Positions 42,456 through 48,400 of a DNA stretch of 64,000 nt are shown one piece after another. This DNA is from Escherichia coli (GTDB lineage: Bacteria > Pseudomonadota > Gammaproteobacteria > Enterobacterales > Enterobacteriaceae): assembly GCF_048403405.1 (NCBI RefSeq), contig NZ_CP183135.1; one strand, given 5' to 3'. Every line of letters starts with the position of its first letter. Positions within the stretch are counted from its first letter, which is position 1. Made by a program: the position numbers.

Positions 42456-45400
42456 CTAATTTTTGTTGACACTCTATCATTGATAGAGTTATTTTACCAC
42501 TCCCTATCAGTGATAGAGAAAAGTGAAATGAATAGTTCGACAAAGATCGCATTGGTAATTACGTTACTCGATGCCATGGGGATTGGCCTTATCATGCCAG
42601 TCTTGCCAACGTTATTACGTGAATTTATTGCTTCGGAAGATATCGCTAACCACTTTGGCGTATTGCTTGCACTTTATGCGTTAATGCAGGTTATCTTTGC
42701 TCCTTGGCTTGGAAAAATGTCTGACCGATTTGGTCGGCGCCCAGTGCTGTTGTTGTCATTAATAGGCGCATCGCTGGATTACTTATTGCTGGCTTTTTCA
42801 AGTGCGCTTTGGATGCTGTATTTAGGCCGTTTGCTTTCAGGGATCACAGGAGCTACTGGGGCTGTCGCGGCATCGGTCATTGCCGATACCACCTCAGCTT
42901 CTCAACGCGTGAAGTGGTTCGGTTGGTTAGGGGCAAGTTTTGGGCTTGGTTTAATAGCGGGGCCTATTATTGGTGGTTTTGCAGGAGAGATTTCACCGCA
43001 TAGTCCCTTTTTTATCGCTGCGTTGCTAAATATTGTCGCTTTCCTTGTGGTTATGTTTTGGTTCCGTGAAACCAAAAATACACGTGATAATACAGATACC
43101 GAAGTAGGGGTTGAGACGCAATCGAATTCGGTATACATCACTTTATTTAAAACGATGCCCATTTTGTTGATTATTTATTTTTCAGCGCAATTGATAGGCC
43201 AAATTCCCGCAACGGTGTGGGTGCTATTTACCGAAAATCGTTTTGGATGGAATAGCATGATGGTTGGCTTTTCATTAGCGGGTCTTGGTCTTTTACACTC
43301 AGTATTCCAAGCCTTTGTGGCAGGAAGAATAGCCACTAAATGGGGCGAAAAAACGGCAGTACTGCTCGGATTTATTGCAGATAGTAGTGCATTTGCCTTT
43401 TTAGCGTTTATATCTGAAGGTTGGTTAGTTTTCCCTGTTTTAATTTTATTGGCTGGTGGTGGGATCGCTTTACCTGCATTACAGGGAGTGATGTCTATCC
43501 AAACAAAGAGTCATCAGCAAGGTGCTTTACAGGGATTATTGGTGAGCCTTACCAATGCAACCGGTGTTATTGGCCCATTACTGTTTGCTGTTATTTATAA
43601 TCATTCACTACCAATTTGGGATGGCTGGATTTGGATTATTGGTTTAGCGTTTTACTGTATTATTATCCTGCTATCGATGACCTTCATGTTAACCCCTCAA
43701 GCTCAGGGGAGTAAACAGGAGACAAGTGCTTAGTTATTTCGTCACCAAATGATGTTATTCCGCGAAATATAATGACCCTCTTGATAACCCAAGAGGGCAT
43801 TTTTTACGATAAAGAAGATTTAGCTTCAAATAAAACCTATCTATTTTATTTATCTTTCAAGCTCAATAAAAAGCCGCGGTAAATAGCAATAAATTGGCCT
43901 TTTTTATCGGCAAGCTCTTTTAGGTTTTTCGCATGTATTGCGATATGCATAAACCAGCCATTGAGTAAGTTTTTAAGCACATCATCATCATAAGCTTTAA
44001 GTTGGTTCTCTTGGATCAATTTGCTGACAATGGCGTTTACCTTACCAGTAATGTATTCAAGGCTAATTTTTTCAAGTTCATTCCAACCAATGATAGGCAT
44101 CACTTCTTGGATAGGGATAAGGTTTTTATTATTATCAATAATATAATCAAGATAATGTTCAAATATACTTTCTAAGGCAGACCAACCATTTGTTAAATCA
44201 GTTTTTGTTGTGATGTAGGCATCAATCATAATTAATTGCTGCTTATAACAGGCACTGAGTAATTGTTTTTTATTTTTAAAGTGATGATAAAAGGCACCTT
44301 TGGTCACCAACGCTTTTCCCGAGATCTCATCTATTGAAACAGCTTGATAGCCTTTTTCAACAAACAATATTCGTGCTGAGTTAACCAGTGATTGATAGGT
44401 ACTCTTAAAATTTTCTTGTTGATGATTTTTATTTTCCATGATAGATTTAAAATAACATACCGTCAGTATGTTTATGGTATCATGATGATGTGGTCGTGAC
44501 AATCTTAAGAACATTTAGGTTATTTTATGTATATTGAACAGCATTCTCGCTATCAAAATAAAGCTAATAACATCCAATTAAGATATGATGATAAGCAGTT
44601 TCATACAACGGTTATCAAAGATGTTCTATTATGGATTGAACATAATTTAGATCAGTCTTTACTGCTTGATGATGTGGCGAATAAAGCGGGTTATACCAAG
44701 TGGTATTTTCAGCGGCTGTTCAAAAAAGTAACAGGGGTCACACTGGCTAGCTATATTCGTGCTCGTCGTTTGACGAAAGCGGCTGTTGAGTTGAGGTTGA
44801 CGAAAAAAACTATCCTTGAGATCGCATTAAAATATCAATTTGATTCCCAACAATCTTTTACACGTCGATTTAAGTACATTTTTAAGGTTACACCAAGTTA
44901 TTATCGGCGTAATAAATTATGGGAATTGGAGGCAATGCACTGAGAGATCCCCTCATAATTTCCCCAAAGCGTAACCATGTGTGAATAAATTTTGAGCTAG
45001 TAGGGTTGCAGCCACGAGTAAGTCTTCCCTTGTTATTGTGTAGCCAGAATGCCGCAAAACTTCCATGCCTAAGCGAACTGTTGAGAGTACGTTTCGATTT
45101 CTGACTGTGTTAGCCTGGAAGTGCTTGTCCCAACCTTGTTTCTGAGCATGAACGCCCGCAAGCCAACATGTTAGTTGAAGCATCAGGGCGATTAGCAGCA
45201 TGATATCAAAACGCTCTGAGCTGCTCGTTCGGCTATGGCGTAGGCCTAGTCCGTAGGCAGGACTTTTCAAGTCTCGGAAGGTTTCTTCAATCTGCATTCG
45301 CTTCGAATAGATATTAACAAGTTGTTTGGGTGTTCGAATTTCAACAGGTAAGTTAGTTGCTAGAACCCATGGCTCCTTTGCCGACGCTGAGTAGATTTTA

Positions 45401-48400
45401 GGTGACGGGTGGTGACAATGAGTCCGTGTCGAGCGCTGATTTTTTCGGCCTTTAGAGCGAGATTTATACAATAGAATTTGGCATGAGATTGGATTGCTTT
45501 TAGTCAGCCTCTTATAGCCTAAAGTCTTTGAGTGACTAGATGACATATCATGTAAGTTGCTGATAGGTTTCCAGTTTTCCGCTCCTAGGTCTGCATATTG
45601 TACTTTTCCTCTTACTCGACTTAACCAGTACCAACCCAGCTTCTCAACGGATTTATACCATGGCACTTTAAAGCCAGCATCACTGACAATGAGCGGTGTG
45701 GTGTTACTCGGTAGAATGCTCGCAAGGTCGGCTAGAAATTGGTCATGAGCTTTCTTTGAACATTGCTCTGAAAGCGGGAACGCTTTCTCATAAAGAGTAA
45801 CAGAACGACCGTGTAGTGCGACTGAAGCTCGCAATACCATAAGTCGTTTTTGCTCACGAATATCAGACCAGTCAACAAGTACAATGGGCATCGTATTGCC
45901 CGAACAGATAAAGCTAGCATGCCAACGGTATACAGCGAGTCGCTCTTTGTGGAGGTGACGATTACCTAACAATCGGTCGATTCGTTTGATGTTATGTTTT
46001 GTTCTCGCTTTGGTTGGCAGGTTACGGCCAAGTTCGGTAAGAGTGAGAGTTTTACAGTCAAGTAATGCGTGGCAAGCCAACGTTAAGCTGTTGAGTCGTT
46101 TTAAGTGTAATTCGGGGTAATGACTCCAACTTACTGATAGTGTTTTATGTTCAGATAATGCCCGATGACCTTGTCATGCAGCTCCACCGATTTTGAGAAC
46201 GACAGTGACTTCCGTCCCAGCCTTGCCAGATGTTGTCTCAGATTCAGGTTATGCCGCTCAATTCGCTGAGTGTAACGCTTGCTGATTACGTGCAGCTTTC
46301 CCTTCAGGCGGGATTCATACAGCGGCCAGCCATCCGTCATCCATACCACGACCTCAAAGGCCGACAGCAGGCTTAGAAGACGCTCCAGTGTGGCCAGAGT
46401 GCGTTCACCGAATACGTGCGCAACAACCGTCTTCCGGAGCCTGTCATACGCGTAAAACAGCCAGCGCTGGCGCGATTTAGCCCCGACGTATCCCCACTGT
46501 TCGTCCATTTCCGCGCAGACGATGACGTCACTGCCCGGCTGTATGCGCGAGGTTACCGACTGCGGCCTGAGTTTTTTAAATGGCGGAAAATCGTGTTGAG
46601 GCCAACGCCCATAATGCGGGCGGTTGCCCGGCATCCAACGCCATTCATGGCCATATCAATGATTTTCTGGTGCGTACCGGGTTGAGAAGCGGTGTAAGTG
46701 AACTGCAGTTGCCATGTTTTACGGCAGTGAGAGCAGAGATAGCGCTGATGTCCGGCGGTGCTTTTGCCGTTACGCACCACCCCGTCAGTAGCTGAACAGG
46801 AGGGACAGCTGATAGAAACAGAAGCCACTGGAGCACCTCAAAAACACCATCATACACTAAATCAGTAAGTTGGCAGCATCACCTAATTCGGGGCAGAATT
46901 GGTAAAGAGAGTCGTGTAAAATATCGAGTTCGCACATCTTGTTGTCTGATTATTGATTTTTCGCGAAACCATTTGATCATATGACAAGATGTGTATCCAC
47001 CTTAACTTAATGATTTTTACCAAAATCATTAGGGGATTCATCAGGGTGATGCGTGCACTACGCAAAGGCCAGGCCTCAGCATTTTATTATGGTGATCCCC
47101 TGGGCGAAATGCGCCTGGTAAGCAGAGTTTTTGAAATGTAAGGCCTTTGAATAAGACAAAAGGCTGCCTCATCGCTAACTTTGCAACAGTGCCGTGCAGA
47201 CAGAAACCGTAAACACCGGCATTGACATGCCGGGGAAGCCCTTATAGTACAATAATTCTCTATATCCAAACTGACCCCGATGAGAAAAGCATGGAGACGT
47301 TGAGCACCAATCTGCAACTCGCCCGGCTGGTTGGCGTTCAGGGGACGCCGGCAACCATCATTGGCGACGAGATGATCCCCGGCGCGGTATCGTGGGAGAC
47401 CCTTGAGGCGGTGGTGAAAGAAAAACTGGCGGTGGCCCATGCTCAGTAAACTGCGCCGCTGGCTGCGTGAAGGCGCGATCTTACTGGTTGTGCTGGCTGG
47501 CGTGATAATCCTGCTGGATGTCTGGCGTTCTCCGCAGATGCCGGCCATGTTTGACAGCACGCCGCTGCATACGCTGGACGGGGAAACCGTAACGCTGGCG
47601 TCGATCAGTGAAGAACGCCCGGTGCTGCTCTACTTCTGGGCGAGCTGGTGCGGTATCTGCCGTTTCACCACGCCGGATGTCGCCCGTTTGCAGTCGGAAG
47701 GGGAGAGCGTCATGACCATCGCGCTGCGTTCCGGTAATGACGGGGAGGTTTCCCGCTGGTTATCGCGTAAAAGGGTGACGTTCCCCGTCGTGAATGATAG
47801 CGGCGGTGAGATATCACGAAACTGGGAAATCAGCGTCACGCCAACGCTGGTGGTGGTGTCGAAGGGGCAGGTGGTAACTACGACCAGCGGCTGGACCAGC
47901 TACTGGGGCATGAAGTTACGTCTGTGGCGGGCAGCCATGTTTTGATAGCGTGCCGGGGAAACCCGGCATTTTTTAACCCATTGTAAGGATGTGTAAAACG
48001 AGCGGAGAGCGTGTTTTCTGTTATTTTTGCTGCTTTTTTACCGACGCCAGTTATTATTTTTTACCGCTGCCTGATGTTGCAAACCTGAATTGATAATGGC
48101 ATATCTGTTTTAATTGAATGAAAGTCTGTGATACGTTCAGGCGATTTTTTCGATTTCCATTTTGACAGGGATAACAATTCAATGCGCAAGGGTAAAATTA
48201 TTGTTGCATCAATGATGGTGCTTTGTGTCCTTATTTTTGTTGCGGCGGCGGCATGGTTTATGCTGTTCCAGGGAGAAATGACGGAGCCGACAGAGGAGGA
48301 AAAACAGGCGGCAATTTTACACGCTGCGGGCCTGATGAAATCAGAGACCCAGGATAAAAAATCAGTCGAAACGCTCTATCATCGTTATATTATTCAACGC

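Follow-up and report, generated by a model that had tools for sequence, protein, structure and literature searches.

Among the closest described relatives of the locus analysed here is plasmid pTS14, reported to carry, beside iron-uptake genes, a truncated Tn10-like transposon without IS10-left (IS10L) and jemA, and an IS10-right (IS10R) split by IS26 and by an IS1 with 8-bp direct repeats (PMC7347964). We analysed a 64,000-nucleotide (nt) stretch of Escherichia coli DNA (assembly GCF_048403405.1, contig NZ_CP183135.1; hereafter the window) in which a tet(B) module derived from Tn10 ends on its right in an IS10R interrupted by an IS1 with the same 8-bp repeat on both sides. Coordinates are those of the whole window, one strand, 5' to 3', and the elements were located by reading window 44500-47700 together with a repeat map. 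We conclude, with a probability of about 0.88, that this region of an IncF multiresistance plasmid is a fossil stack of transposition events. The structure is real, widespread and already known, and implies no new mechanism. The small additions made here are that a 9-bp site in IS26 was used by IS10 at least twice, that a reciprocal joint exists, that IS1-free ancestors can be named, and that the gene for the antisense RNA RNA-OUT survives in the outer remnant of IS10R.

Both pTS14 (MN328348) and pJSWP006-1 (AP018939) resemble the window in having lost IS10L and jemA, in keeping tet(B) and tetD, and in having an IS1-split IS10R; they match its 3.4-kb region at 100% identity, the match spanning 828 bp more than the query. 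Unlike the window, they carry an extra IS26 with its own 8-bp repeat and have IS10R in three pieces. Plasmid pMS21199A differs in having an IS26 inside the IS1, where the window has none. The older IncF multiresistance plasmids pRSB225 (JX127248) and pIP1206 (NC_010558) share the arrangement of IS10R, IS26 stub and scsCD but differ in the surrounding resistance modules; over 93% of window 30001-55000, pRSB225 is 99.7% identical. The IS10/IS26 junction is not discussed in the pEC302/04 paper or in the mBio paper on plasmid fitness cost. Canonical Tn10, represented by the intact 9147-bp copy of an IncHI2 Salmonella plasmid (CP082444), shares with the window the gene order and sequence of Tn10 nt 3407-9147 (99.95%) and the tetD/IS10R inside-end joint. 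The window differs from it in lacking IS10L and gltS/jemA, in its interrupted IS10R and in having no 9-bp duplication at the ends.

IS10R lies on the minus strand in two segments. The main part, IS10 nt 1329 down to 154 (44940-46115), comprises the inside end and the transposase gene from codon 16 on. The outside-end stub, nt 161 down to 1 (46884-47044, 161 bp), holds codons 1-18 of the transposase gene together with the outside terminal repeat. The inside end, CTGAGAGATCCCC (CTGAGAGATCCCCTCATAATTTCCCC), begins at 44940, where it shares bases with the tetD stop codon; the outside end, ...GGGGATTCATCAG (...TTAGGGGATTCATCAG), finishes at 47044. Both termini are intact. Between the two segments is an IS1 of exactly 768 bp (46116-46883, minus strand; copy 4) with terminal repeats GGTGATGCTGCCAACTTA / GGTAATGACTCCAACTTA, flanked by direct repeats of TAATTCGG at 46108-46115 and, at the start of the stub, 46884-46891, which correspond to IS10 nt 154-161. 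IS1 usually duplicates 9 bp of its target, and 8 bp is also known; a 9-bp reading is ruled out here by a run of four G on both sides. Joining 44940-46115 to 46892-47044 in silico, which removes IS1 and one repeat, yields a 1329-bp IS10 with one unbroken 402-residue transposase open reading frame (ORF) starting at IS10 nt 108, 100% identical to the intact IS10 of plasmids pMG101-B and pR85_1. In pMG101-B and other IS1-free relatives the 8-bp site is present unduplicated. This exact reconstruction and the empty site in pMG101-B confirm the original prediction, made from the sequence of this stretch, that the fourth IS1 copy sits in IS10 with an 8-bp duplication.

Against the reference Tn10, the window element differs by 1 nt from IS10R and by 16 nt from IS10L, which identifies it as IS10R. 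Segment 46884-47044, on whose resemblance to the IS10 5' end the original prediction turned, is 100% identical to the reference IS10R, and the coordinates and sequences that had been put forward were all borne out when the window was reread. The perfect matches over 149, 768 and 1329 bp in this region allow chance to be discounted.

The duplicated 8 bp lie inside codons 16-18 of the transposase gene, in keeping with the proposed break near codon 15. Translation from the transposase start in the window gives 18 native residues followed by 8 IS1-encoded residues and a stop, and the gene segment in 44940-46115 has neither promoter nor start codon. On a colinear plasmid the NCBI Prokaryotic Genome Annotation Pipeline (PGAP) labels this segment 'IS4-like element ISVsa5 family transposase, missing N-terminus'. 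At the sequence level, then, the gene is split after codon 18 and would be dead, and because it is cut off from its promoter and first 18 codons this IS10 copy should be unable to supply transposase. The element has the 1329-bp length and both terminal repeats of IS10 without the single 402-residue ORF in the window, and is a disrupted member of its kind.

Only nt 3407-9147 of Tn10 are kept in the window. Alignment of 40528-46117 with the reference starts at Tn10 nt 3407 and runs without gaps at 99.95% identity. The start coincides with the edge of an IS1B-like IS1 (copy 3; 39760-40527, plus strand, a 768-bp repeat), which cuts Tn10 at this point and has catA1 to its left; the IS1/Tn10 junction at window 40528 corresponds to position 6607 of the reference locus. 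Lost at copy 3 are nt 1-3406, comprising IS10L, gltS/jemA and the initial 76 bp of the ORF that follows, so the absence of IS10L and jemA beyond copy 3 had been correctly called. The central part of the remnant (40528-44939, Tn10 nt 3407-7818, gap-free alignment to intact Tn10) carries a truncated monooxygenase-like ORF (named jemB in PMC7347964), a hypothetical ORF, an ArsR-like jemC, and tetR(B), tet(B), tetC and tetD, these last four intact. Comparison with intact Tn10, proposed as a check when the structure was first noted, thus accounts for nt 3407-9147 and establishes the identity of IS10R. Two inverted IS10 copies with their outside ends outermost, flanking jemA-C and tetRACD, are not present, and the window therefore holds a Tn10 remnant.

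The tet(B) module had been described as immobilised. This stands for Tn10-type transposition but is overstated for other routes, because two inverted IS1, both apparently intact, flank the module, which has IS26 copies around it and is carried by a plasmid typed as conjugative by MOB-suite. The module would no longer be movable as Tn10, whereas movement by IS1, IS26, homologous recombination or conjugation should still be possible, and it is on these that further spread of tet(B) from here would now rely. An IS1-bounded composite transposon, Tn9-like in principle, is not what the window contains: the outer flanks of the two IS1 are unrelated, and copy 4 has a private duplication. An IS1-bounded unit at another site was seen in none of the relatives, all of which were obtained through the IS10/IS26 junction; no dedicated search was made.

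The outside end of IS10R abuts an IS26 sequence directly, at 47044|47045. As the original prediction had it, this sequence is the last 149 bp of an IS26: 47045-47193 (plus strand) matches nt 672-820 of the complete IS26 at 62093-62912 with 100% identity. It contains the right terminal repeat and the last tnp26 codons, in place of the 820 bp, 14-bp terminal repeats and tnp26 of a full element, and with one terminal repeat and no transposase gene this remnant is inert by itself. Its first 9 bp are GGTGATGCG (IS26 nt 672-680). If IS10 transposase made the joint, GGTGATGCG would be the target and the IS26 part of the partner joint would end in GGTGATGCG. We built and searched for both possible partner joints, IS26(1-680) with the IS10 outside end and IS26(1-680) with the IS10 inside end. 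In the window itself no 9-bp IS10 target duplication is found, because the inside end retains its native Tn10 flank.

Two plasmids carry IS10 at precisely this position. Klebsiella pneumoniae pR85_1 (CP091583) has the order IS26(1-680)|outside end-IS10-inside end|IS26(672-820), with a complete IS10R-type IS10 and a perfect 9-bp duplication of GGTGATGCG at IS26 nt 672-680. In E. coli IncF plasmid pEC21Z137-66K (CP101237), IS26(1-680) runs directly into the IS10 inside end, an arrangement reciprocal to the window joint for a lone IS10 in the window orientation. The search for a 9-bp IS10 duplication on a partner end in other plasmids, which had been suggested for this locus, was thus answered by the duplication in pR85_1 and the reciprocal joint in pEC21Z137-66K. 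Both plasmids match the window in having an IS10R-type IS10 exactly at IS26 nt 672-680, next to neither scsC nor tet(B) in either case. They differ from it as follows: pR85_1 has a complete IS10, both IS26 halves and the opposite orientation, and in pEC21Z137-66K the IS10 is reduced to its inside-end half, which another IS26 truncates at IS10 nt 659 and which is present as a tandem duplication. IS26 nt 672-680 was therefore struck by IS10 at least twice independently, once in each orientation. Since the breakpoint in the window is a site demonstrably used by IS10, a random deletion endpoint is very unlikely; the evidence, though indirect, supports reading the IS10/IS26 joint as a transposition junction.

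The array in pEC21Z137-66K (NZ_CP101237; 7030-10551 of the locus) is a tandem duplication of IS26 nt 1-680 plus IS10 nt 1329-659, followed by a complete IS26, an unusual amplification built from an interrupted IS26.

The original prediction had left the joint between insertion of Tn10 into an IS26 and an adjacent deletion. In the latter case, deletion or illegitimate recombination would have removed the DNA between the IS10R outside end and the interior of IS26, with no insertion of IS10 into IS26. This would suit a window that holds only one side of an insertion and no 9-bp duplication there, in a region rich in IS-mediated deletions. However, the breakpoint coincides to the base with the IS10 insertion site in the IS26 of two other plasmids, in both orientations. 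In addition, a single IS10, which moves by cut-and-paste, is not known to make deletions outward from its outside end. We also designed a 392-nt probe across the junction of IS10 outside end, IS26 stub and truncated scsC, built to tell IS1-free from IS1-containing versions, which matched 828 PLSDB records at a coverage of at least 80%; the IS10/IS26 junction is invariant among the best 60 of these 828 matches and in every relative read through the joint. We rejected adjacent deletion as the origin of the joint on the ground that the breakpoint equals a genuine, 9-bp-duplicated IS10 site elsewhere, and consider it very improbable. Insertion is thus the part of the earlier proposal that holds, with the qualification that the inserting unit may have been IS10R alone.

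On that last point two versions of the insertion have to be weighed. In the first, IS26 received a lone IS10R, which subsequently recombined with the copy of IS10R in a Tn10. In the second, which departs from the first in this one step only, an entire Tn10 moved as one unit into IS26 nt 672-680, and its IS10L end together with IS26 nt 1-680 was later deleted by IS1 copy 3. Transposition of a whole Tn10 requires no additional recombination, and accounts directly for tetD adjoining the IS10R inside end exactly as in Tn10 and for an outside end facing IS26, as a Tn10 terminus would. The loss of IS10L from every relative examined would also explain why its partner joint is absent. Against it, searches of PLSDB and of complete E. 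coli genomes turned up no IS26(1-680)|IS10L joint. In PLSDB an IS26(1-680)|outside-end joint occurs solely in pR85_1, as part of a lone IS10R-type IS10, and complete E. coli genomes yielded none. Furthermore, a whole Tn10 shows outside ends on both sides, so the inside-end joint in pEC21Z137-66K cannot have come from a Tn10 insertion, and a third independent strike at the same 9 bp would be needed to explain it. Insertion of IS10R alone is the most economical account and is slightly favoured, at what we judge to be even odds; transposition of the whole Tn10 is a serious contender that we hold at somewhat less than even.

Several observations weigh against the insertion account as a whole. Each partner joint is known from one plasmid, and the two lie in differing sequence contexts. 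An exact-pattern scan of species-representative genome contigs and metagenome contigs returned neither partner joint, and no relative was found that has both IS26 halves around IS10R beside scsC. The state before IS10, an intact IS26 directly at scsC, was absent from the best 40 matches, all of which have a second IS26 further upstream and the same 149-bp stub with DNA between them, a ranking that could not isolate single-piece matches. Finally, in our comparison GGTGATGCG fits only three of the four specified positions of the relaxed IS10 target consensus NRCNNNGYN (quoted in PMC4574204).

Other searches for related joints gave few matches. The joint of inside end and IS26(672-) was absent from genome contigs in the exact scan and present in PLSDB only in pR85_1, and complete E. 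coli genomes contained no further partner joints. The 8-bp flank of the IS26 stub, GTGCAGAC, occurs at no other IS26 end in the window. The native Tn10 flank of the inside end (window 44922-44939, GGAATTGGAGGCAATGCA) resembles IS26 nt 664-680 (GGTATTGAGGTGATGCG), to the extent that a BLAST alignment ran across both; this may reflect either an IS10 target preference or coincidence.

The relative order of the events can be read from plasmids that lack the IS1 in IS10R. Plasmid pMG101-B (CP070963), the IncF component of silver-resistance stocks that go back to a Salmonella isolated in Boston in 1973 (PMC8417528), aligns colinearly with window 38266-57972 at an identity of at least 99.9%, and has an intact IS10R with no IS1 at nt 154-161. 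A plasmid of E. coli GW-AmxH19 has the same IS1-free arrangement. In both, the order is catA1, IS1, truncated Tn10, tetRBCD, IS10R, IS26 stub, truncated scsC and scsD, with IS1 copy 3 already cutting Tn10 at the same point and with the same IS10R/IS26 joint. They differ from the window in showing the state before the last insertion. Because both features are present in IS1-free plasmids, the truncation of Tn10 by copy 3 and the IS10R/IS26 joint predate the IS1 in IS10R, and on these sequence comparisons the IS1 insertion is the latest event that the window records.

The IS1 that made this insertion is not a copy of its neighbour. We compared the IS1 sequences at 46116-46883, 39760-40527, 1569-2336 and 9443-9918. 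Copy 4 is 97.3% identical to the IS1B-like copy 3, which PGAP labels 'IS1-like element IS1B' in p675SK2_B, a plasmid 100% identical here. All 21 differences fall within IS1 nt 19-282, giving approximately 8% divergence in that part, and the two copies are identical over nt 283-768. This distribution suggests that copy 4 is a mosaic produced by recombination between IS1 variants. It is a distinct variant that came from elsewhere. Its transposase frames are apparently intact: minus-strand ORFs at 46553-46828 and 46131-46634 correspond to insA and insB, and on an identical plasmid sequence PGAP calls it 'IS1 family transposase, programmed frameshift' and does not mark it as a pseudogene. The truncated IS1 at 9443-9918 is equally close to copies 3 and 4, with one difference, at nt 295.

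These data also bear on the idea that copy 4 arose from copy 3 by intramolecular replicative transposition, the inverted IS1 pair then recording an inversion of the tet module. The two IS1 are indeed inverted and flank the module, and an event of exactly this kind is seen in the Salmonella Wien plasmid pZM3. For the window, however, this origin is refuted by the 21 differences between the copies, by the direct 8-bp duplication around copy 4, and by a tet module in the same orientation as in IS1-free pMG101-B; we give it almost no credence. It does explain pZM3 (NZ_MK797990; 3892-11325 of the locus), where another IS1 event struck the same IS10R. In that plasmid an IS1 lies on either side of an inverted tet module, and both joints contain IS10 nt 804-811, as is characteristic of intramolecular replicative IS1 transposition into an 8-bp target.

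Taken together, the most probable history would begin with insertion of IS26 at or in scsC, at the edge of an iron-uptake cluster. IS10 transposase would then have placed IS10R into IS26 nt 672-680, with GGTGATGCG as the target and the outside end toward the IS26 tail, the inserting unit being either of those weighed above. Tn10 would subsequently have lost its left 3.4 kb and IS26 its 5' 671 bp, leaving IS1 copy 3 as the present left boundary of the module. A distinct IS1 variant next inserted into IS10R nt 154-161 with the 8-bp duplication, as the reconstruction shows, and the whole arrangement would afterwards have been inherited vertically and by plasmid spread.

The outside-end stub may have retained a function. 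It contains a complete RNA-OUT gene (46930-46999, plus strand, directed toward the IS26 stub and scsD), which matches Rfam RF00240 with 98.8 bits against a gathering score of 41, over model positions 1-70 of 70, and which keeps 46 nt of native upstream sequence. The promoter pOUT is reported to lie in this upstream region, and RNA-OUT to repress translation of the IS10 transposase in trans (Simons et al. 1983, cited in PMC4574204). The 46 upstream nt should include pOUT, and the stub probably still makes antisense RNA-OUT that would repress IS10 transposase in trans. A point against this is that pOUT was not called by a simple sigma-70 promoter scan. The sole site flagged by that scan is a weak promoter-like sequence at 46870-46899 (plus strand), a hybrid in which the IS1 terminal repeat supplies the -35 (TTGGCA) and IS10 the -10 (CAGAAT); it is directed toward RNA-OUT and scsD and is a weak consensus match only. 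If the stub does express RNA-OUT, transposition of an incoming IS10 or Tn10 would be damped in trans, and read-through into scsD and the iron-uptake genes might follow. If IS26 nt 672-680 is a preferred IS10 target, despite its poor match to the consensus, IS10 would repeatedly inactivate IS26. The proposal that one or the other holds, a preferred target at IS26 nt 672-680 or continued RNA-OUT expression from the stub, is tentative, and we consider it rather less likely than its converse.

The arrangement is widely distributed. At a query coverage of at least 80%, the exact 3.4-kb configuration occurs in 100 plasmids of PLSDB and 108 out of 5426 complete E. coli genomes, and window 29223-58345 is 100% identical to the E. 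coli plasmid p675SK2_B. Among the best 60 of the 828 junction-probe matches, 16 are uninterrupted at the IS1 site, and the next 44 all break at the first base of the duplication. The 161-bp outside-end stub is kept in every derivative examined and among these best 60 matches. The joint of IS10R, IS26(672-820) and truncated scsC, together with the IS1 at IS10 nt 154-161, forms a set of unique, stable scars that are useful as lineage markers. Through them, hundreds of multiresistance plasmids of the IncF group, along with some IncC, Klebsiella, Salmonella, Shigella and Vibrio plasmids, are linked to one shared ancestral resistance region, which without the IS1 is also on pMG101-B and hence in the stocks from the 1973 isolate. 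Rearrangements can be put in order, and the region typed, by means of these scars.

Relatives have been altered further in other ways. In NZ_CP020515, NZ_CP023845 and many other matches, later IS26 copies cut IS10R or IS1 copy 4, for example at IS10 nt 959. The spacing from the upstream IS26 to the stub varies, and the 161-bp stub and 149-bp IS26 stub are always retained; the erosion has therefore all come from the tet side. The K. pneumoniae IncC plasmid pB2-1 (NZ_KX458222; 8779-10026 of the locus) carries the block of IS10R, IS26 stub and scsD with a 1248-bp insertion in IS10R, flanked on both sides by IS10 nt 1146-1150 (a 5-bp duplication). The presence of this block on an IncC plasmid indicates that the whole IncF-derived block moved to another plasmid type.

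Beyond the IS26 stub, annotation of colinear plasmids mapped to the window places a truncated, DsbA-like scsC at 47279-47449 and an intact scsD, listed as an ORF, at 47439-47945, both on the plus strand. Together (47279-47945) they form the border of the plasmid iron-uptake cluster. Elsewhere in the window, the IS26 at 33896-34715 is flanked by the 8-bp direct repeat CCCAATGC and therefore represents a simple insertion. For the remaining three complete IS26 copies the flanks are unrelated, pointing to later recombination or deletion. The window also contains two pairs of perfect inverted repeats, 13903-15218 with 29223-30538 (1316 bp) and 11328-12153 with 32039-32864 (826 bp). The 826-bp repeat adjoins an IS26 (10508-11327) on one arm only, position 32864 lying approximately 1 kb from the nearest IS26. 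These repeats suggest duplicated segments of the resistance region in opposite orientation.

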